The translations under genes were made by a program, and so were the position numbers. Source: Patescibacteria group bacterium (GTDB taxonomy: Bacteria > Patescibacteriota > JACPGU01). From it: a stretch of DNA of 64,000 bases. The DNA lies in assembly GCA_041675145.1 (NCBI GenBank), contig JBAYUK010000002.1, forward strand, positions 216,530-280,529, given 5' to 3'. Numbering within the stretch: the stretch's first letter is position 1; each line of letters starts with the position of its first letter. Below the pieces are notes generated by a model that was given only the letters and a program-made list of their open reading frames with translations, had not been told where the DNA came from and searched no databases. This document shows positions 8,462 to 56,863 of this stretch, piece after piece.

Positions 8462-9406
8462 ATGTCTAGACGCGAGATTGTTACATTCTTTAGAAGAAAA
8501 GGTAAAAGGAGATTCCTTGTGCCTATTTTCTTATGCGTGATACTAATTTTATTCGTACATGTAGCTATACTATATAGGTACCAGTCTTCAACGAATTCGT
8601 ATATCAGCTACTTACGAGGAATTGCTCCATTGCCGTTAATTGTAGTTGGTAATCACTTCGTTACTATGAGTGACTATACGAAGGAGTTGGCTCTGTATAG
8701 GAGGATATATTCTAGTGTATATAGAGTTAACTTCTCTTCAGAAGGTAAGGGGTATAACGATATACAGGAATTAAAAGATTTTGTTCAACAGACGATGATA
8801 AACAGAATAGTACTGCAAAAGACTGCCGATAGTTTTTCTTTATCCGTTTCTACTCAAGATATAGATTCTGCTATTGAAGAGCTGCAGAAGAATGTTGGAA
8901 GTCGTGAAGAAACTTTTGGAATATTAAAGTTTGCCTCTGGGCTCTCCGAGAGTGATCTTCGTAAATTGATGTACTACGATCTTTTAGAAAAGAAGGTTAA
9001 GGAAAGAGTACTGTACCAGGTCCGTCTTGATGGGGTAGTGATAGATAAGACGGTGTCTTACGACTCTAGGGGAAAAAAAGCGAGTGCAGCTGAGGTAGCT
9101 CAAGATACAAGAGATGACATAGCTGCAAAGAAAATTTCTTTTTCTGACGCCAGGTCAGTGTATAAGTCACAAAGTAAAGACCTAGATCTTCTTGAATCAT
9201 GGTATGTTTTTGGTGATATACCTTCAATATTTAGAACCTCTCTTGATGATATTAAGAAAGGGGAGGTGGGCGGAGTAGTTGAGACTGAAGGTAGTTACTT
9301 TATACTACAGATTACAGAAGAAAGAGGTTATTTTAGGGGGACCTATTTTGACCTCTTGAAAAACCAACGAGATAGCATCTCCGTGCGTAGTTTTTTAACG
9401 ATATAA
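8462..9406 (+). CDS. hypothetical membrane-anchored protein, possibly a SurA-N/PpiD-like chaperone domain
   Basis: 314 aa with a single N-terminal TM segment and a long soluble domain. The chaperone assignment rests on weak resemblance only. Confidence 0.35.
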   Translation: MSRREIVTFFRRKGKRRFLVPIFLCVILILFVHVAILYRYQSSTNSYISYLRGIAPLPLIVVGNHFVTMSDYTKELALYRRIYSSVYRVNFSSEGKGYNDIQELKDFVQQTMINRIVLQKTADSFSLSVSTQDIDSAIEELQKNVGSREETFGILKFASGLSESDLRKLMYYDLLEKKVKERVLYQVRLDGVVIDKTVSYDSRGKKASAAEVAQDTRDDIAAKKISFSDARSVYKSQSKDLDLLESWYVFGDIPSIFRTSLDDIKKGEVGGVVETEGSYFILQITEERGYFRGTYFDLLKNQRDSISVRSFLTI

Positions 9407-9464: not shown

Positions 9465-9538
9465 GCTCCCGTAGTGAAGAGGCCTATCACGTCTCCCTGT
9501 CACGGAGAAGATCGCCAGTTCGAATCTGGTCGGGAGCG
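9465..9538 (+). tRNA. tRNA-Asp (GTC)
   Basis: Cloverleaf: acceptor GCTCCCG/CGGGAGC, D-stem GTGA/TCAC, anticodon stem TCTCC/GGAGA with loop CTGTCAC, T-arm GCCAG-TTCGAAT-CTGGT. No CCA is encoded. Confidence 0.8.
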
Positions 9539-9561
9539 CTTTTACCTAGGCTCAACTTGAA

Positions 9562-9972
9562 ATGATTACTGAAGATCTCAGACGGTTTGTGTACGGAGTT
9601 CAAAAAGGGTTGAAGATCAACCCTTTTTATAAATACCTAAAAGATAATATTCTTTTTAAAAATAGAGCTCTTTGGCTCTTATTATTTGTTTGTCTTTTGC
9701 TCAACTTTTTCCTTTTTTTAATCTGGAGATATTCAATTGACACCGGGGCAGGGATTAGATTTATTGAGGAGCAACCAATAGTCCAGAATGCATTTTTTTT
9801 ACCTGCTGATTTTGTACTTCCATTTGTAAGTCTCTACTTCTTAGGTATAAATATAGTACTATCTGTTGTATTGTATCGTTTGACGCAAATGAAGATCTTT
9901 ATTTACACACTATTATCTGTAAGTATTGTTGTCTCGAGTGTGCTAATTATAGCAAGTTTGTTATCTATATAA
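9562..9972 (+). CDS. small integral membrane protein (136 aa), unknown
   Basis: Hydrophobic ORF lying directly upstream of the glycosyltransferase with a 6-nt gap. Confidence 0.35.
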   Translation: MITEDLRRFVYGVQKGLKINPFYKYLKDNILFKNRALWLLLFVCLLLNFFLFLIWRYSIDTGAGIRFIEEQPIVQNAFFLPADFVLPFVSLYFLGINIVLSVVLYRLTQMKIFIYTLLSVSIVVSSVLIIASLLSI

Positions 9973-9978
9973 ACTGTT

Positions 9979-11601
9979 ATGGAATCAAAAACAAGGCTTC
10001 ATAGATTACTTGAGATTGTACCCGGAGCAGTTACCTGGATGGTTTTATGTACTCCATTTATACTCGGCCTATACACACCTCGCTATCTCGCTTACTTTGT
10101 AATCTTCTTTGACCTCTATTGGCTTATTAAAGCAATGTACATGGGAGGTTTCCTTATTTCTTCACATATTCATATGGAAAGAGACAAGAGGATAAACTGG
10201 TTTGATCGTTGCCAGGCATTACTTGACCTACCACGCGCGATTGAAGAGAAGAAGGCTGAACTCGCTACAGTGGGGTTTCTTCACAAGAAAAAAATTAGAG
10301 AAGAGCTATCTGAATTAGTTGTATTGCAGGATCAGGAGCCGAATTATTTAAAGCGTTGGGATCAAATATATCACTTAGTGCTTCTCCCGCACTATAAAGA
10401 TGAGTACCAGATCATTCGTAGTGCAGTAGCGTCATGCGCTCACGGTAACTTTCCTAGCCAAAAAATGATTATTGTAATTGCACTTGAAGAAAGAGAAGAA
10501 GGTGAGGCAAAGTTTGAAAAAGTTAAGAAAATTCAGGAAGAGTTTGGCGATTACTTCTATGACATTTTTTATACATTACATGCAGATGCTCCTAATGAGA
10601 TTAAGGGTAAGAGCGCAAATATCAAGTGGGCAGGGAAGGTTATCCAAAAGTATATAGATGAAAAGGGTATTCCATATGACGACATTATGGTTTCTGCCTT
10701 TGATGGTGATACAAGAGTTAGCTCAGAGTACTTCGGTTGTCTAACTTACAAGTATCTTATTACTCCAGAGAGAACAAAAAGAACATACCAGCCTATTCCG
10801 TTATTTAACAATAATATATGGGAGGTGCCATTTTTAGTTCGACTCGTTTCTTTTGGGTCATCGTTTTGGCAGATGATAGAAAGTTGTCGTCCATATAGGC
10901 TCATTAACTTCTCTTCACAGGCGATGAGTCTAAGAACGCTAGTGGACATAGATTTTTGGGATGAGAAGATTGTTTCAGAGGACTCAAGACAGTACTACAG
11001 AGCCTTTTTCCGTTATCATGGAAATCACCAGGCTATACCGCTATTTACTCCAGTAAATATGGATGCTGTTTTAGGAAACTCACTGTGGCAGACATTTAAG
11101 TACCAATATTACCAGAAGAGACGTTGGGCGTGGGGGGTAGAGAACTTCCCGTATCTAGTTCTTGAATCTATGGCACACCCTGAGATTGTATTTTGGAAGA
11201 AGTTTATTTTAGTGTGGCGTATCTTTATTGGTAGCGTGGAGTGGTCAACAGCATCACTACTTATTGCATTCGCTGGTTGGTTACCGATTTTGCTCAACGC
11301 TGACTTCAGGGACAGTGTCCTGGCTTACAACTTACCAATCATTGCCAGAAACATACTGATGGCTACCTGGATAGGTATTTTTGCTTCTACGTATATAAGC
11401 TTGAAACTTGTGCCGCCACGACCAAAGAACTATCCTAAGGCAAAAGCAATAGAAATGATAGTACAATGGATCTTCGTTCCGATTACTGCTATTTTCTTTG
11501 GCTCAATACCTGCAATAGACGCTCAAACTCGAATGATGTTAGGAGGAAGATTCCGTCTTGGTTTTTGGGTTACCCCGAAGAAGTTCGTAAGACCAGACTA
11601 G
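9979..11601 (+). CDS. processive family-2 glycosyltransferase (cellulose/chitin/hyaluronan-synthase-like membrane polysaccharide synthase)
   Basis: 540 aa with N- and C-terminal TM helices. The central GT-A domain carries LHADAP, FDGDTRV and the hallmark QxxRW motif (YYQKRRWAWG). Confidence 0.65.
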   Translation: MESKTRLHRLLEIVPGAVTWMVLCTPFILGLYTPRYLAYFVIFFDLYWLIKAMYMGGFLISSHIHMERDKRINWFDRCQALLDLPRAIEEKKAELATVGFLHKKKIREELSELVVLQDQEPNYLKRWDQIYHLVLLPHYKDEYQIIRSAVASCAHGNFPSQKMIIVIALEEREEGEAKFEKVKKIQEEFGDYFYDIFYTLHADAPNEIKGKSANIKWAGKVIQKYIDEKGIPYDDIMVSAFDGDTRVSSEYFGCLTYKYLITPERTKRTYQPIPLFNNNIWEVPFLVRLVSFGSSFWQMIESCRPYRLINFSSQAMSLRTLVDIDFWDEKIVSEDSRQYYRAFFRYHGNHQAIPLFTPVNMDAVLGNSLWQTFKYQYYQKRRWAWGVENFPYLVLESMAHPEIVFWKKFILVWRIFIGSVEWSTASLLIAFAGWLPILLNADFRDSVLAYNLPIIARNILMATWIGIFASTYISLKLVPPRPKNYPKAKAIEMIVQWIFVPITAIFFGSIPAIDAQTRMMLGGRFRLGFWVTPKKFVRPD

Positions 11602-11690
11602 CTGGGGATGTGCTTGAAAAAAAGGATGATTGTGGTACAATAGGACGGCACCCTATATGGATGCTCTTTTATAAATATCTGTAATAGTGT

Positions 11691-11764
11691 CGGGGAGTGG
11701 CGCAGCTGGCTAGCGCACCTGGTTTGGGACCAGGGGGTCGCAGGTTCGAATCCTGTCTCCCCGA
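11691..11764 (+). tRNA. tRNA-Pro (TGG)
   Basis: Acceptor CGGGGAG/CTCCCCG, D-stem GCGC/GCGC, anticodon stem CCTGG/CCAGG with loop TTTGGGA, T-loop TTCGAAT. Confidence 0.85.
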
Positions 11765-11836
11765 TTTTTTACAAGAAAATGTTTGGTAGTTATATAAGTT
11801 AAGACATTAGTCTTAACAGAATAAATTGCCATATGA

Positions 11837-11909
11837 GCGGGTGTCGTATAGTGGTTCATTATGCTAGCCTTCCAAGCTGGAGAGGTGGGTTCGATTCCCA
11901 TCACCCGCT
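11837..11909 (+). tRNA. tRNA-Gly (TCC)
   Basis: Acceptor GCGGGTG/CACCCGC, anticodon stem CTAGC/GCTGG with loop CTTCCAA, T-arm GTGGG-TTCGATT-CCCAT. It closely resembles Bacillus tRNA-Gly. Confidence 0.8.
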
Positions 11910-11972
11910 CTTTTGAATCTTAAAATTCAGTATCGTGCATTTCTGCTCTTCGGCTTTTCTTGTTTCTCCAAT

Positions 11973-12044
11973 GTCCTCGTGGTGAAATGGATATCACGCT
12001 TGGCTTCGGACCAAGAATTTCGGGTTCGAATCCTGACGAGGGCA
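11973..12044 (+). tRNA. tRNA-Arg (TCG)
   Basis: Acceptor GTCCTCG/CGAGGGC, D-stem GTGA/TCAC, anticodon stem CTTGG/CCAAG with loop CTTCGGA (G37), T-loop TTCGAAT. Confidence 0.75.
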
Positions 12045-12072
12045 TTGGAAAGACGTGAAAGGGCAATAGTGG

Positions 12073-12144
12073 GGTGACCATAGTTTAGTGGTAAAACTCC
12101 AGTTTGTGGCACTGGTATCGAGGGTTCGATTCCCTCTGGCCACC
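12073..12144 (+). tRNA. tRNA-His (GTG) with an encoded G-1
   Basis: An extra 5' G pairs with discriminator C. D-stem GTTT/AAAC, anticodon stem CCAGT/ACTGG with loop TTGTGGC, T-arm GAGGG-TTCGATT-CCCTC. Confidence 0.8.
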
Positions 12145-12187
12145 CCATTGCAGCTCTTTTTGTCTGCAAGGTATTTTAACTGAGTTT

Positions 12188-12261
12188 GCGCCCGTAGCTC
12201 AGTTGGATAGAGCAGGAGACTTCTAAGCTCAAGGTCAGAGGTTCGACTCCTCTCGGGCGCG
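12188..12261 (+). tRNA. tRNA-Arg (TCT), with an unusually weak anticodon stem
   Basis: Acceptor GCGCCCG/CGGGCGC, D-arm TAGCTCAGTTGGATAGAGC, loop CTTCTAA, T-arm AGAGG-TTCGACT-CCTCT. Only 3 of the 5 anticodon-stem pairs are canonical. Confidence 0.6.
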
Positions 12262-12290
12262 TTGATATTTTCCTACTTATAGATACAATA

Positions 12291-12629
12291 ATGAGTATGA
12301 AAATAGATAGAAAAAGTTTTGAAAAGGATGTTGTTGCGCTTGTATCATCAATCCCAGTTGGCCGAGTGATGACTTATGGTCAAATTGCTGCACTGGTTGG
12401 TTTTCCTCGCGCAGCACAAATGGTTGGATGGGTCATGCATTGGTCGGATCAGAAAAAGGTTCCGTATCAAAGAGTAGTAAACCGTTTTGGCGGTCTTGCT
12501 GTTGGCTATACTAACGGTGGGATTGATGGACATAAAAACGATTTACTTAACGAAGGGATAGTAGTAGGCGAAGATGGCACCATAGATCTCGAAAGATATA
12601 TGTGGTGGCCAAAAAATGTGGATCTGTAG
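12291..12629 (+). CDS. MGMT-family (O6-alkylguanine-DNA alkyltransferase-like, ATL-type) DNA-binding protein
   Basis: 112 aa. It has the MGMT C-domain pattern (TYGQIAALVG...VPYQRVVN), with Tyr replacing the catalytic Cys of the PCHRV motif, as in ATL/YbaZ proteins. Confidence 0.6.
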   Translation: MSMKIDRKSFEKDVVALVSSIPVGRVMTYGQIAALVGFPRAAQMVGWVMHWSDQKKVPYQRVVNRFGGLAVGYTNGGIDGHKNDLLNEGIVVGEDGTIDLERYMWWPKNVDL

Positions 12630-12693
12630 CTCAGTTGGTTAGAGCAACTGCCTCTTAAGCAGTGGGTCGTGAGTTCGAGTCTCACCAGGTCCA
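12620..12693 (+). tRNA. tRNA-Lys (CTT)
   Basis: Acceptor GGATCTG/CAGGTCC, D-arm TAGCTCAGTTGGTTAGAGC, anticodon stem ACTGC/GCAGT with loop CTCTTAA. It overlaps the last 10 nt of the preceding CDS. Confidence 0.85.
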
Positions 12694-12697
12694 TTTT

Positions 12698-12769
12698 GGT
12701 CCCATCGTCTAGTGGTTAGGACATCAGGTTTTCATCCTGAAAAGAGGGGTTCAATTCCCCTTGGGACTA
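12698..12769 (+). tRNA. tRNA-Glu (TTC)
   Basis: Acceptor GGTCCCA/TGGGACT, D-stem GTCT/GGAC, anticodon stem TCAGG/CCTGA with loop TTTTCAT, T-arm AGGGG-TTCAATT-CCCCT. Confidence 0.8.
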
Positions 12770-12778
12770 TTAGGGATA

Positions 12779-12859: not shown

Positions 12860-13828
12860 ATGATTAGCAAAATTGTTATGGCAGAAAAAGATAAAAAAAC
12901 AAAGAAAAGGGTTACTCCAAAGAAAGTTTCTACAAAAAAAATAGCTACCAATAAGGCTTCAGCTAGTTCTGTAAAGGAAGTGCCTACAAGTGACTTCTTG
13001 TATGTAGGTACATGGATACATACAAACTGGATGTATGTAGCTGGTGCGTTTACTGGTTTGGTCGTCGCTGCGATCCTCGTAATTGCTGGGCTACACTATA
13101 TAAACAAGACCTCTGATATGAATATGAATACCGATGATTCGGTAGCGCAGGACTCAACTACAGAAGAATCCCCGTCGCTTGGTAGTCAAACTGAGTCGGA
13201 CGAAACTTTAGACAAACGTATCTACATAGGGCCTGCTAGTAAGCAGTTAGCAAAAGCTATTTCTGAAAAAGAAAAAGCCGATGAAAATAATATAGCAGTG
13301 CAAATTCTTAAATTTGACGAGATTCATGCAAAGGGAAGGTTTTTTGTTAAGGACCACCCAGAAGATGTAAATCCAAGAAACGACTCACAGGACTGGAAAC
13401 CTTTCTTTGCGGTTCAATTTAATACTGTTTGGACAATAGTTTCGGTAAATGACGAGAACCCCACCTGTATGGATCTAAAAAAGTATACTTTTCCTGCAGA
13501 CATTATGTATCCATGTAGTGATGATAACGAAAAAAAGGCATGGAGTGACACTGACCTAGAGGATCAGGTATCTAAGATACTTGAACAAAGATATGGCTCT
13601 GATCAAATTGACTTTATAGATATAGCTCAGTTTAGTGGTGACTTTGTTAGGGGAGTACTCAACCTAACCGAAGGGGAACATGACTTTTATCTTAAGAAAT
13701 CAACTGACGGTTGGAATGTAGTATACGATGGAGCCGGTGCTATCCCATGTGATGAGCTTAAAGAAGCTGGTTTCCCACAAGATATGTTCCTATCTTCATG
13801 TTACCCTGAATACGAAATAATTAGGTAG
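12860..13828 (+). CDS. hypothetical membrane-anchored protein with a Lys-rich N-terminal tail
   Basis: 322 aa: a K-rich 45-aa N-terminus, one TM helix, an acidic Ser/Thr-rich linker and a globular C-domain. No motif recognised. Confidence 0.4.
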   Translation: MISKIVMAEKDKKTKKRVTPKKVSTKKIATNKASASSVKEVPTSDFLYVGTWIHTNWMYVAGAFTGLVVAAILVIAGLHYINKTSDMNMNTDDSVAQDSTTEESPSLGSQTESDETLDKRIYIGPASKQLAKAISEKEKADENNIAVQILKFDEIHAKGRFFVKDHPEDVNPRNDSQDWKPFFAVQFNTVWTIVSVNDENPTCMDLKKYTFPADIMYPCSDDNEKKAWSDTDLEDQVSKILEQRYGSDQIDFIDIAQFSGDFVRGVLNLTEGEHDFYLKKSTDGWNVVYDGAGAIPCDELKEAGFPQDMFLSSCYPEYEIIR

Positions 13829-49647: not shown

Positions 49648-49676
49648 TTGACTACCTGCTTTTTCCTCGCTATAAT
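49648..49676 (+). promoter_or_regulatory. rRNA operon promoter
   Basis: TTGACT-17 nt-TATAAT, about 170 nt upstream of the 16S 5' end. Confidence 0.6.
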
Positions 49677-49845
49677 GACCCGAGAAATAGTTCATGCTAT
49701 TTTCAAAACAATTAAGACAACAAAGATTTCAAACTCATTGAATGGTTTGTTTTTTTGTCTCTCGATTGGTCGGACCTTAAGAACTGGAAGATGATAAGAA
49801 TGTGCTCAAGATTGTGAAATTTTGAAGCTCTATCTAGAGCTTTGT

Positions 49846-51410
<1,565 letters not shown>

Positions 51411-51584
51411 AAGGAGAAAGATTTCAAAGAAATTTGAAATTCTAGGTCGCGATCAAACATTCGTGTTTGATATGTATTGTGAAGAGCACTTCTTATCATC
51501 TTTAAGTTCTGAAGGCCGGGAGCGTAACGCAAGTTGCGCTTTCTTGGTAAATAGGCTAGGATTATCTGGTGGAATTAGACGTGA

Positions 51585-51658
51585 GGGCGTGTAGCTCAGG
51601 TGGTTAGAGCGCTACACTGATAATGTAGAGGTCGGAGGTTCGAGTCCTCCCATGCCCA
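51585..51658 (+). tRNA. tRNA-Ile (GAT)
   Basis: Acceptor GGGCGTG/CATGCCC, anticodon stem CTACA/TGTAG with loop CTGATAA, T-arm GGAGG-TTCGAGT-CCTCC. It lies in the 16S-23S spacer. Confidence 0.9.
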
Positions 51659-51675
51659 CTTTTAAACACATACAC

Positions 51676-51921
51676 ATGATATTTCAACAGTTTGTAATCT
51701 TGATTTTAGGAGTTGGCATTGGTATACTCATCCTCGTGTATCGTCGCGAGATTGTGCGTACCGTGGGGTTATCTGGTTGGGCAGAACGCGTCTTTGGTGG
51801 TGGTGGCACCCATACAATGTGGCAACTGATCGGGCTACTACTTATTATCGGAACGGTTCTGTATTCAACAGGAAAGTTAACTGCAGTATTTGATAGTATC
51901 TTTCACGCGATTGGGTTATAA
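51676..51921 (+). CDS. hypothetical 81-aa hydrophobic ORF between tRNA-Ile and tRNA-Ala (uncertain)
   Basis: The only stop-free frame spanning the 270-nt tRNA-Ile/tRNA-Ala spacer. It predicts two TM helices (FVILILGVGIGILILV, LIGLLLIIGTVLY). There is no obvious Shine-Dalgarno. Confidence 0.25.
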   Translation: MIFQQFVILILGVGIGILILVYRREIVRTVGLSGWAERVFGGGGTHTMWQLIGLLLIIGTVLYSTGKLTAVFDSIFHAIGL

Positions 51922-51928
51922 AACGCGT

Positions 51929-52001
51929 GGGCCCTTAGCTCACTTGGTAGAGCGCCTCGTTTGCACCGAGGAGGTAAGCGGTTCGAATCCGCTAGGGTCC
52001 A
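51929..52001 (+). tRNA. tRNA-Ala (TGC)
   Basis: Acceptor GGGCCCT/AGGGTCC with the G3:U70 identity pair, anticodon stem CCTCG/CGAGG with loop TTTGCAC, T-arm AGCGG-TTCGAAT-CCGCT. Confidence 0.9.
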
Positions 52002-52007
52002 CTTTAG

Positions 52008-52039
52008 AACAAAAGAACCTCTTGCGAGGTTCTTTTGTG
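52008..52039 (+). terminator. strong 13-bp stem-loop immediately after tRNA-Ala (a terminator or processing hairpin)
   Basis: ACAAAAGAACCTC-ttgc-GAGGTTCTTTTGT. The loop and 3' flank contain TTGCGA-16 nt-TATAAT. Confidence 0.45.
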
Positions 52040-52056
52040 ATAATATAATAGACCTT

Positions 52057-52881
52057 ATGCAGGAAACTTTTTCACTTATTGTTTTTAATACATGGAACGG
52101 AAGACGATGGGAGGAGTATGTTCGGTTTTTAGAAGATACAAAAAGTAGTACCGATATATATTGCTTCCAGGAAGTTCTCAATGGTCATGAACCAGGATTT
52201 ACTAAGAGTACGGGCTCGCGTATCAATCATATTACCGAAACTACAAAGATTCTCAATGCAGGGTATGTGGCATTTGCAAATCGCCAAGCCTATTTCAAGA
52301 AAGATGTACTGCTTGAGTTTCTCCCGTATGGTATCGCTACCGTTCATGATATTAACCATAAGAGAAACTTGCGATTAACTGAAAGACAAGATATTTTTTT
52401 GGTCGGTGCTATGGACAGTTGCGATGATCCATACGCAGAAAATGTTCAGTTACCTGTCGTAATTCAGAAAATTCGTTATGAAACATTTGACGGGAAACCT
52501 TTCTATATTCTCAATCTCCATGGTTATTGGCAGGATGGAATTGGAAAAGGGGATCATCCAGTGCGGCTTGAGCAAACGAAGAAGCTAGTGACGATTCTTG
52601 AAGGTTTGGATGCTCCCTGGGTTCTAGCGGGGGATTTTAATATGAATCTAAATTCAGAGAGTATCCGTTTATTAGAAGCGCTCCCAGGCGCCCGGAACCT
52701 TATACGCGAATATGAAGTCACTACTACCAGGACAAGCCTTTACCCAGAAGTGAAGCGCCTTAAGGAGCCACACGCTGATTATATTTTTGTCAAAAATATC
52801 GCCATAGATTCATTTAGGGTAGACCCTGGTTTACTAGTCTCGGATCATGCCCCGATGTATCTTGATTTCGGTGTAGTGTAG
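52057..52881 (+). CDS. endonuclease/exonuclease/phosphatase (EEP, DNase I-like) family protein encoded inside the rRNA operon spacer
   Basis: 274 aa with the ordered EEP motifs IVFNTWNG, CFQEV (catalytic Glu), LAGDFNMN and SDHAPMYLDF. There is no signal peptide. The ATG sits 7 nt after a TATAAT, consistent with a leaderless transcript. Confidence 0.75.
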   Translation: MQETFSLIVFNTWNGRRWEEYVRFLEDTKSSTDIYCFQEVLNGHEPGFTKSTGSRINHITETTKILNAGYVAFANRQAYFKKDVLLEFLPYGIATVHDINHKRNLRLTERQDIFLVGAMDSCDDPYAENVQLPVVIQKIRYETFDGKPFYILNLHGYWQDGIGKGDHPVRLEQTKKLVTILEGLDAPWVLAGDFNMNLNSESIRLLEALPGARNLIREYEVTTTRTSLYPEVKRLKEPHADYIFVKNIAIDSFRVDPGLLVSDHAPMYLDFGVV

Positions 52882-53044
52882 CCGCTTGTTTTCTCCCTAA
52901 AATAAGTGCTTGACGGGAGGTATCTTTATAGATTAAAATGCAAGGACAGGTTTAGCCCTGTTTTATTTATCTTATTCAATGATTTTTTCTCAAACACACA
53001 GTATTTCACAGATACAGCCGTAGCCCGAGGAGAAACCCTCTTGG

Positions 53045-53067
53045 CCGCTGTAGAAGCGGTTTTTTTA
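53045..53067 (+). terminator. rho-independent terminator downstream of the EEP gene
   Basis: CCGCT-gtaga-AGCGG followed by TTTTTTTA. Confidence 0.5.
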
Positions 53068-53233
53068 TCCCCATTTGGCCCACAATTTAGTATTTCTTTC
53101 ATGAGGAATACTAATAGTGAATCAAATCTGTACATTAAAAATTTTGAAATTCGAGTAACAAAGTAACTTCGAAGGTTAACATGTATTGTGAATCGCAAGA
53201 GACGCACAAGGTATAATGCTTTGCGCGTTGTAG

Positions 53234-56201
<2,968 letters not shown>

Positions 56202-56276
56202 TACAACGCCAAGAGCGTTATGGAACTTCGCATTGCTTTGTGATACTCGAATTTCAAAAATATTTCATAGATACTA

Positions 56277-56383
<107 letters not shown>

Positions 56384-56418: not shown

Positions 56419-56450
56419 AAAACCCCTCCACATTGTGGAGGGGTTTTCTT
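56419..56450 (+). terminator. rho-independent terminator of the rRNA operon
   Basis: AAAACCCCTCCA-cattg-TGGAGGGGTTTT followed by CTTGT. Confidence 0.65.
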
Positions 56451-56503
56451 GTGGTTCTCCTGTTTATCTGGCATACTAGAGGTACTATTACATACAAACT
56501 ATT

Positions 56504-56863
56504 ATGAATATACCAGATGAGAATATTGACGATGTAGTGCGCGATGAGGCTGTGGTTCACGAGGCTTTTGAAGCACAAAAGATTACTCCAGAGGAGCTAT
56601 CTTCAATTGAAACAGTAGAGCAGTTACAAGCTCAGTCACAGACATTGCAGGCTGGCGAAGCGCTAGAAGAGGTTTCGGATGTTGTTATGCCATCTAGTGA
56701 AGATCATGGGAAAATAGAGGAGATAATAATTCCTTCTCAAGTAACTTCAAAAGAACAAGTAAGTGCAACAACAGATGTACCTGAATCCTTACAAGAGATT
56801 AAAGAGAACAGTGAAGTATCTAACGAAGTTAAGCCTCACAATTCTGAGATTAAGAATCGATAG
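56504..56863 (+). CDS. hypothetical acidic protein (119 aa)
   Basis: Glu/Asp/Gln-rich with no motif. It lies in the same orientation directly upstream of mutM. Confidence 0.4.
   Translation: MNIPDENIDDVVRDEAVVHEAFEAQKITPEELSSIETVEQLQAQSQTLQAGEALEEVSDVVMPSSEDHGKIEEIIIPSQVTSKEQVSATTDVPESLQEIKENSEVSNEVKPHNSEIKNR

Follow-up and report, generated by a model that had tools for sequence, protein, structure and literature searches.

The rRNA locus of a Patescibacteria (candidate phyla radiation [CPR]) genome holds a complete protein-coding gene of the endonuclease/exonuclease/phosphatase (EEP) superfamily between its 16S and 23S rRNA genes. This raises the question of whether that gene serves rRNA, has invaded the locus, or is simply a neighbor. 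The locus lies in a 64,000-nucleotide stretch of a metagenome-assembled genome (MAG), referred to here as the window; coordinates are window positions. A sequence-only reading of this DNA had noted a spacer of about 1.8 kb and proposed that the 16S-tRNA and 23S-5S halves are transcribed separately around an inserted nuclease, either a domesticated or selfish element or an rRNA-processing factor. The spacer indeed measures 1,824 nucleotides between the Rfam boundaries, and separate transcription of the two halves is, to judge from the sequence, the most likely arrangement. Neither proposed role held up, since rRNA was found near none of 89 loci carrying EEP homologs, the rRNA loci of about eight relatives contained no EEP gene, no repeats flank the gene, and its composition is native to the genome. 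We consider the EEP gene likely to be an ordinary passenger with independent expression, at the boundary of two rRNA transcription units in a loosened locus.

Organization of the locus

The positions of rRNA and tRNA genes were taken from Rfam and ARAGORN. On the plus strand the order is 16S, tRNA-Ile, an open reading frame (ORF) of 81 amino acids, tRNA-Ala, the EEP ORF (274 amino acids), 23S, and 5S, with the following features.

49648-49676, plus strand: promoter-like site of the 16S unit, TTGACT-17-TATAAT (11 of 12 consensus matches)
~49787-49808 and ~51484-51502, plus strand: arms of the 16S processing stem (flank complementarity)
49843-51408, plus strand: 16S rRNA gene (Rfam, 1473 bits)
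51585-51659, plus strand: tRNA-Ile(GAT) (Rfam, ARAGORN)
51676-51921 (longest ORF from 51652), plus strand: small membrane-protein gene, two predicted helices, 81 amino acids (ORF, GenBank, conservation)
51929-52002, plus strand: tRNA-Ala(TGC) (Rfam, ARAGORN)
52004-52043, plus strand: strong hairpin after tRNA-Ala (folding energy against shuffles)
52022-52049, plus strand: promoter-like site of the EEP gene, TTGCGA-16-TATAAT (10 of 12 consensus matches)
52057-52881, plus strand: EEP-superfamily phosphoesterase gene, 274 amino acids, MFA7309144.1 (ORF, Pfam, structure model)
52910-52939, plus strand: promoter-like site of the 23S-5S unit, TTGACG-18-TAAAAT (10 of 12 matches, conserved)
52943-52964, plus strand: hairpin at the predicted 5' end of the 23S leader transcript (hairpin scan, folding)
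53043-53068, plus strand: 23S-leader hairpin with T run, GGCCGCT-GTAGA-AGCGGTT, TTTTTTT (conserved motif)
~53142-53245, plus strand: 5' arm of the 23S processing helix, partner 56190-56259 (direct complementarity)
53233-56203, plus strand: 23S rRNA gene (Rfam, 2613 bits)
56278-56383, plus strand: 5S rRNA gene (Rfam)
56421-56451, plus strand: terminator-like hairpin after 5S, AACCCCTCCA-CATTG-TGGAGGGGTT, then TTCTTG (T-rich), found by direct reading of the sequence and not listed by a simple hairpin scan

Proposed transcription of the 16S-tRNA unit and the EEP gene

In the arrangement that we propose, the rRNA "operon" would be loosened into adjoining but separate transcription units. The first would run from the promoter-like site at 49648-49676, which sits after the terminator hairpin of ClpP, through 16S, tRNA-Ile, the 81-amino-acid ORF, and tRNA-Ala, and would most likely end at the hairpin at 52004-52043. 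This hairpin, already pointed out from the sequence as a strong flanking structure, consists of a perfect 13-bp stem between an A run and a T run; its folding energy is -20.2 kcal/mol (z = -6.7), a stability that none of 200 shuffles reached. It probably serves the 16S-tRNA unit as an intrinsic terminator, possibly in both directions; one relative (L097) has no such hairpin after tRNA-Ala.

The second unit would be an ordinary chromosomal EEP gene with its own promoter-like site. The -10 element of this site ends 7 nucleotides before the ATG, which no Shine-Dalgarno motif precedes; given that spacing, the mRNA is probably leaderless. Such expression would be normal here, since a Shine-Dalgarno-like motif precedes only 9 of the 41 long ORFs of the window, though the 16S 3' end keeps CCTCC, and several window genes (starts at 12860, 21206, 45050, 46557, and 52057) have a TATAAT-like hexamer 6 to 8 nucleotides before the ATG. 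Leaderless mRNAs may thus be common in this genome. The product would be a cytoplasmic, Mg2+-dependent phosphoesterase from a family widespread in CPR bacteria and DPANN archaea.

Proposed transcription of the 23S-5S unit and its leader

The third unit would start at the promoter-like site at 52910-52939, continue through a leader (a T-run hairpin, then a processing-helix arm of ~100 nucleotides), 23S, and 5S, and end at a terminator near 56421-56451. Six other genomes have an equivalent of this promoter-like site in the corresponding position:

L091: TTGACC-17-TAAAAT
L095: TTGACC-17-TAAAAT
L097: TTGACC-17-TAAACT, starting 39 nucleotides after tRNA-Ala
L102: TTGACA-17-TAATAT
L104: TTGACA-17-TATATT
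L105: TTGACT-17-TAAAAT

This conservation makes the site a credible 23S promoter. The processing helices of 16S and 23S are each complete on the flanks of their own rRNA. The duplex energy of the 16S stem was -77.5 kcal/mol against -55 +/- 6 for shuffles, and that of the 23S helix (~53142-53245 with 56190-56259) was -73.1 kcal/mol against -30.1 +/- 4.4 with a shuffled 3' flank. A separate promoter and separate transcription for the 23S-5S unit are plausible on sequence grounds.

About 100 to 150 nucleotides past the 23S promoter-like site, all seven genomes carry GCCGCT(T), a loop of 3 to 9 nucleotides, AGCGG, and a run of six or seven T residues. A strict form of the motif, CCGCT-N3-9-AGCGG-N0-2-TTTTT, was searched on both strands of 1.16 Mb and occurred only 140 to 366 nucleotides upstream of 23S, in five genomes (window, 53043-53068; L095:2175-2198; L097:4812-4834; L102:9590-9609; L105:7646-7666); L091 (~313-345) and L104 (~8880-8915) have variants. 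In the relatives an upstream AAGCGGC can alternatively pair with GCCGCTT, and the minimum-energy fold of L097 takes this alternative. Because of this second pairing, the hairpin with its T run looks like an attenuator. It may also stop EEP transcripts, since the EEP ORF lacks a dedicated terminator. A separate small-RNA gene running from the promoter to the T run was set aside as the leading interpretation, as no second promoter is conserved between the T run and the processing stem.

These results changed the reading of three elements that had been singled out downstream of the EEP gene. The two hairpins reported at about 52950 and 53045 as terminators do exist (52943-52964, and 53043-53061 with a T run). 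They are not terminators specific to the EEP gene, because they lie downstream of the 23S promoter-like site and the element at 53043-53068 is kept in relatives lacking an EEP gene; the relatives do not share the hairpin at 52943-52964. The weak TATAAT noted just before 23S is likewise present, at 53212-53217, inside the 23S processing helix. It is not a credible promoter because a transcript starting there, 16 nucleotides before the mature 23S, would have no processing stem. We also observed a boxA-like string, TTTCTCAAACA, at 52984-52994, identical in L097 and resembling ATTTTCAAAACA of the 16S leader; these strings are a weak hint at Nus-type antitermination.

Spacers of related genomes

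Related rRNA loci (L091, L093, L095, L097, L099, L102, L104, L105, and L106, representing about eight relatives) were recovered through the downstream synteny 5S...Fpg-RecO or through the 81-amino-acid ORF. Their 16S-23S spacers range from 1.3 to 7.5 kb, and their contents are varied. In L097 only 39 nucleotides separate tRNA-Ala from the 23S promoter-like site, and a gene for a 640-amino-acid molybdopterin oxidoreductase lies between 16S and tRNA-Ile (L097:2137-4059). L104 has, in the slot occupied by the EEP gene in the window, a Sua5/YrdC gene starting 10 nucleotides after tRNA-Ala and a gene of 194 amino acids (L104:7321-8588). The spacer of L102 holds 4.3 kb of assorted genes (L102:3432-9314) and that of L106 holds 6 kb of mainly cell-wall genes (L106:6676-12968; amidase, holin-like, racemase, MurD-like, and LtaS), both with GIY-YIG genes beside the small ORF. 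An insertion of ~6 kb in L105 carries a large serine recombinase and several small ORFs (L105:1941-6655). Because the slot is empty or filled with unrelated genes in the relatives, the spacer of this clade is a variable gene-holding region, and the EEP gene is its occupant in the window genome. The EEP gene would thus sit in the gap between the first and third units, a boundary at which insertions would be tolerated.

In two relatives the cassette of tRNA-Ile, small ORF, and tRNA-Ala is inverted relative to 16S (L095:1355-1808; L099:1405-1796), and the L095 locus, which includes 23S, shows the cassette reversed relative to that gene as well. With the orientation reversed, these tRNAs lie outside any 16S-23S cotranscript, which appears to call for a separate 23S promoter.

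Two further observations concern the 23S genes of the relatives. That of L093 contains group I introns (L093:1-188 and 1127-1359), and the 23S region of L091 (524-4587) exceeds the model by ~1 kb, suggesting an insertion; both agree with the known habit of rRNA insertions in CPR bacteria.

Identity of the EEP protein

The ORF at 52057-52881 is intact, starts with ATG, and encodes VFNTWNG, YCFQEV, AGDFN, and VSDHAP, so that the complete ORF after tRNA-Ile and tRNA-Ala and the order of its hallmarks were read correctly. A longer version with a TTG start (306 amino acids) has an exact match on a public contig; the 274-residue version gave none. GenBank annotates the gene (MFA7309144.1) as an "endonuclease/exonuclease/phosphatase family protein." The two checks proposed with the sequence-only reading both pointed to this superfamily: Pfam PF03372 matched at 32.6 bits against a cutoff of 24.5, aligning only residues 157 to 264 in the C-terminal half, and the predicted structure (predicted local distance difference test score, 93.9) has the four-layer alpha/beta-sandwich fold. 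A protein search returned 197 homologs with a best E value of 4e-71 and a closest homolog of 47% identity, and PF03372 was present in all 120 of the homologs listed. Residues N11, E39, D193, N195, D263, and H264, invariant in 69 family members, are all present in the window protein, which is a genuine member of the EEP superfamily with an intact active site. It has no N-terminal extension, the first beta-strand of the model beginning at residue 4, and is probably cytoplasmic.

The structural neighbors were uncharacterized bacterial EEP proteins (3g6s, 3mpr, 3l1w, and 4ruw), neutral sphingomyelinase 2, TDP2, and Nocturnin/CNOT6L, with identities to the nearest of only 13 to 20%; CNOT6L, Nocturnin, PDE12, and ANGEL2 among them are RNA-end enzymes. 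The substrates of the nearest structural EEP proteins are not transferable to the window protein, whose family has an invariant motif of its own, HG..(W)..GK.D...R..Q. A sequence search of the PDB returned no EEP protein, only a chance match to an ATP phosphoribosyltransferase (E value of 0.023), and an NCBIfam scan gave no model above the cutoff. Assignment to the exonuclease III/APE1 apurinic/apyrimidinic endonucleases was rejected, as a match to a curated Xth/ExoIII model together with closest structural similarity to these enzymes was not found. PADLOC and PHROGs returned no match for either the EEP protein or the 81-amino-acid protein, and readings as a defense system or phage gene were dropped on these grounds. 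As to substrate, we slightly favor a nucleic acid end (end cleaning of DNA or RNA, or exonuclease action), other phosphoesters being possible.

When 80 homolog loci were clustered, the recurrent neighbors were RecA/RecX/RNase Y (in one clade), SNase, Nth (endonuclease III), MetK, and acylphosphatase. These neighborhoods are mildly suggestive of nucleic acid metabolism, and they are too inconsistent for a function to be assigned. The family (28 to 40% identity) is spread over many lineages of CPR bacteria and also occurs in DPANN archaea (Micrarchaeota and Aenigmatarchaeota), a distribution that suggests exchange among ultrasmall symbionts or shared retention. Several homolog records labeled "Gammaproteobacteria" or "Methanosarcinales" look like mislabeled bins.

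The stretch between 5S and Fpg differs in content among these genomes. In two relatives (L095:6860-9291 and L097:8354-9549) it encodes a LigD phosphoesterase domain and uracil-DNA glycosylase, with RtcB in L095 only, and in the window it holds only a 119-amino-acid acidic protein of unknown family (56504-56863). That the EEP enzyme could fill an end-cleaning role akin to that of the LigD, RtcB, and uracil-DNA glycosylase genes of the relatives is pure speculation.

Genomic surroundings of EEP homologs

The homolog loci comprised 80 from CPR bacteria and DPANN archaea (28 to 40% identity), collected by a genome scan with a 13-sequence alignment, and 9 metagenomic loci for the closest homologs (47%, 41%, and 36% identity), in total 89 loci and 907 kb. 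It was in these that blastn with the window 16S, 23S, and 5S found no rRNA near an EEP homolog; the positive control worked. The closest homologs are surrounded by ordinary protein-coding genes.

In the 80 loci, 20 EEP genes had a tRNA gene within 100 nucleotides (16 of them upstream), compared with 37 of the 524 other ORFs that these loci contain, an odds ratio of 4.4 that is uncorrected for phylogeny. Ten of the 20 cases represent one conserved synteny with tRNA-Pro(GGG), the tRNA occurring in both orientations. The remaining adjacent tRNAs are of nine species (Val-GAC, Val-TAC, Gly-GCC, Gly-TCC, Glu-CTC, Glu-TTC, Ser-GCT, Arg-TCG, and Ala-GGC), which brings the species to ten, and one archaeal EEP cluster of six members has three different adjacent tRNAs. 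After clustering at 60%, 11 of 57 clusters had a tRNA-adjacent member against a per-gene background of 7%, so that the enrichment after clade collapse is modest, at ~2.5-fold. In several lineages the EEP ATG lies -1 to +8 nucleotides from the tRNA 3' end (tRNA/ATG, L013:5938-6013/6013, L015:5921-5992/5995, and L071:960-1045/1054). Similarly tight junctions with tRNA genes were seen for Sua5 (L104) and for the 81-amino-acid ORF, and they may reflect how these genomes express genes in general, EEP genes being no special case. The window can be accounted for simply in these terms: an EEP gene prone to lie beside tRNA genes here adjoins the spacer tRNA-Ala.

Alternative explanations

Misassembly of the metagenome could in principle have placed the EEP gene in the rRNA locus, given that short-read assembly of rRNA regions is notoriously difficult and that the genome is a MAG. 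Two public assemblies (with contigs 366 and 300 kb long) are, however, identical base for base over 20.9 kb across the locus, although they may stem from the same reads. Synteny with the relatives is kept on both sides, upstream as Aldedh-Tig-epimerase-ClpP-16S and downstream as 5S...Fpg-RecO, followed by Alr and ProRS in L091 and L093. A chimeric join at the EEP position, which had been named as a way for the proposal to fail, is unlikely because of this second assembly and these syntenic flanks. The junctions moreover lie in unique sequence (tRNA-Ala/hairpin/EEP and EEP/conserved 23S leader), and the relatives provide independent cases of genes in this slot, between tRNA-Ala and 23S; an assembly artifact is hardly credible. 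A nuclease that is selfish or has moved recently, with rDNA or tRNA genes as its insertion sites, in the manner of R1/L1 APE-type or homing endonucleases, would account for the presence of the gene in the window genome alone among the related rRNA loci, for the patchy sharing of its family between CPR bacteria and DPANN archaea, and for the moderate enrichment beside tRNA genes, and the spacers of relatives do accept mobile DNA (the serine recombinase of L105 and the GIY-YIG genes of L102 and L106). Against it, neither target site duplications nor direct, inverted, or terminal repeats were found flanking the EEP gene beyond short chance-level matches, and the spacer contains no reverse transcriptase, integrase, or transposase gene and no other long ORF beside the stand-alone EEP domain. 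The GC content of the gene (41.3%) and that of its third codon positions (36.7%) are those of the window genes (40.5 +/- 2.6% and 35.4 +/- 3.7%), PHROGs and PADLOC gave no match, and a closest homolog of only 47% identity gives no sign of recent spread. An R1-like retroelement endonuclease was rejected since there is no fusion or linkage to a reverse transcriptase, no target site duplication, and no recurrent rDNA insertion. A homing endonuclease or intron insertion was also rejected, the gene being in the spacer, the protein being an EEP protein, and no intron RNA being detected; a permissive Rfam scan of 51400-53260 returned the two tRNAs and chance-level hits, with no intron, leader, riboswitch, or small-RNA family. 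Taken together, we regard a selfish or mobile nuclease as very improbable.

A role for the enzyme on rRNA or tRNA precursors, such as 3' trimming or removal of 2',3'-cyclic phosphates, with enzyme and substrates made together from the spacer, draws on the gene start 55 nucleotides after tRNA-Ala, on a transcript that can enter the 23S leader, on the adjacency to ten tRNA species and the tight ATG junctions described above, and on the RNA-end enzymes among the structural neighbors. The lack of rRNA near all 89 homolog loci and of EEP genes in the rRNA loci of the relatives speaks against it, as does the strong hairpin with a separate promoter-like site between tRNA-Ala and the EEP gene. Half of the tRNA-adjacent cases trace to the single tRNA-Pro(GGG) synteny, the clade-collapsed enrichment is small, and the abutment of Sua5 and of the small ORF on tRNAs makes the habit look general, and we consider such a role decidedly unlikely. 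A wider version would take the EEP family as a processing or repair enzyme for tRNA and rRNA ends that is wired to tRNA genes, the spacer position being functional and mRNAs, including that of the 81-amino-acid gene, being released by tRNA processing ("tRNA punctuation"); this joint reading is unlikely. If it were true, EEP mRNA would be freed by tRNA processing where the ATG sits -1 to +8 nucleotides from a tRNA 3' end, and the clade would excise translatable mRNAs from pre-rRNA by tRNA processing, a bacterial analog of the tRNA punctuation of mitochondria.

The reading of the EEP gene as an independent passenger has points against it as well. Between the EEP ORF and the 23S promoter-like site there is no terminator for the gene itself, so its transcripts may enter the 23S leader and some coupling to 23S synthesis is possible. 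The T-run hairpin lies downstream of the proposed 23S promoter, and RNA polymerase must read through it. The adjacency of EEP genes to tRNA genes exceeds the background and leaves a small probability that EEP genes are linked to tRNA genes by function or mobility. The top structural neighbors include a sphingomyelinase and a sugar phosphatase and do not fix the substrate. The recovered relatives are distant (16S identity of 75 to 90%, Fpg identity of 53 to 60%). All promoter, terminator, and leaderless calls come from consensus matching and conservation, and we infer these functions, like the substrate.

A conserved small gene between the spacer tRNAs

An ORF fills the 269 nucleotides that separate tRNA-Ile from tRNA-Ala; its longest version (51652-51921) overlaps tRNA-Ile. 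The annotated version (MFA7309143.1, 81 amino acids) starts 17 nucleotides after tRNA-Ile and stops 7 nucleotides before tRNA-Ala, and its product is hydrophobic with two predicted helices. The protein is 44% identical to those of ORFs in the same place in L095 and L097, with 32 invariant columns and the core VG..SWAER..GGGGT..MWQLIG. A word-indexed search placed the family in 24 clusters, and an exhaustive search gave 148 representatives at 50% identity, of ~65 to 100 amino acids. No Pfam model matched, and NCBIfam gave only subthreshold, chance-level matches.

In all six distinct loci with visible rRNA context (window, L095, L097, L102, L104, and L106), the small ORF occupies the 16S-23S spacer with tRNA-Ile, tRNA-Ala, or both as neighbors; three more loci (L099, L103, and L105) are partial or rearranged. 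The coordinates of the ORF in the relatives are as follows.

L095:1448-1699, minus strand
L097:4282-4530
L102:4854-5072
L104:7001-7234
L105:7001-7249
L106:7001-7264

The association with the tRNAs is kept despite inversion of the cassette or a swapped tRNA order, in genomes with 75 to 90% 16S identity. Most other family members lie on very short contigs, as expected for rRNA-adjacent DNA. On this sequence conservation, the small ORF qualifies as a conserved coding gene that resides in the spacer. With a tRNA on either side of its mRNA, the arrangement would by analogy recall mitochondrial tRNA punctuation.

Elsewhere in the window, positions 9465-12770 hold nine tRNA genes on the plus strand, including Asp at 9465-9539 and a cluster of Pro/Gly/Arg/His/Arg/Lys/Glu at 11690-12770. 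The tRNA density of the window is high, and this group is otherwise unremarkable.

Significance

An rDNA-embedded nuclease, if true, would have meant a new selfish element or an rRNA maturation factor. An ordinary gene at a permissive boundary, of a kind already documented for Patescibacteria and reduced genomes, means that the EEP gene itself matters little. More notable are the conserved 81-amino-acid gene and the terminator-like element of the 23S leader. A gene stably set between the spacer tRNAs would be an unusual route to a protein from a pre-rRNA transcript, and the conserved 23S promoter-like site with its leader element offers a possible handle on the balance of 16S and 23S synthesis. 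Variable, gene-holding spacers also affect internal transcribed spacer (ITS) typing, long-amplicon 16S-ITS-23S surveys, and MAG assembly.

Comparison with known systems

Divided rRNA loci and spacer genes have precedents, as Rickettsia has its 16S separated from 23S-5S, and the Borrelia burgdorferi spacer also contains protein-coding ORFs, including one for a DNA repair glycosylase. Insertions into rDNA by R1Bm, TRAS1, and L1 differ from the present case. The APE-type endonucleases of these elements are structurally farther from the window protein than are TDP2 and the CCR4 branch, and the window gene has no reverse transcriptase domain, target site duplication, or repeated copies and lies in the spacer, not in an rRNA gene. 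CPR rRNA genes are known to carry homing endonuclease and intron insertions (Brown et al. 2015, as cited in 10.1101/705046). Those insertions are likewise protein-coding DNA at rRNA genes, but the window gene lies between rRNA genes, and EEP is not a homing endonuclease family.

"Unlinked" rRNA genes, defined by a spacer of >1,500 nucleotides, were described by Brewer et al. as common and clade conserved in Patescibacteria and in other symbiotic, reduced, or slow-growing lineages (10.1101/705046). At 1,824 nucleotides the window spacer falls under this definition, but its 16S and 23S are still adjacent and co-oriented, with the canonical tRNA-Ile and tRNA-Ala between them, which places it at the mild end of the spectrum. 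Genes inside such spacers are not described in that study, and PMC3457768, on large variations in bacterial rRNA genes, contains nothing on spacer genes. For B. burgdorferi, three transcripts of the rRNA region (16S-tRNA-Ala, tRNA-Ile, and 23S-5S) were established experimentally (PMC3037291). The split proposed for the window would be of the same kind, in a different lineage and with a different gene content and tRNA order.

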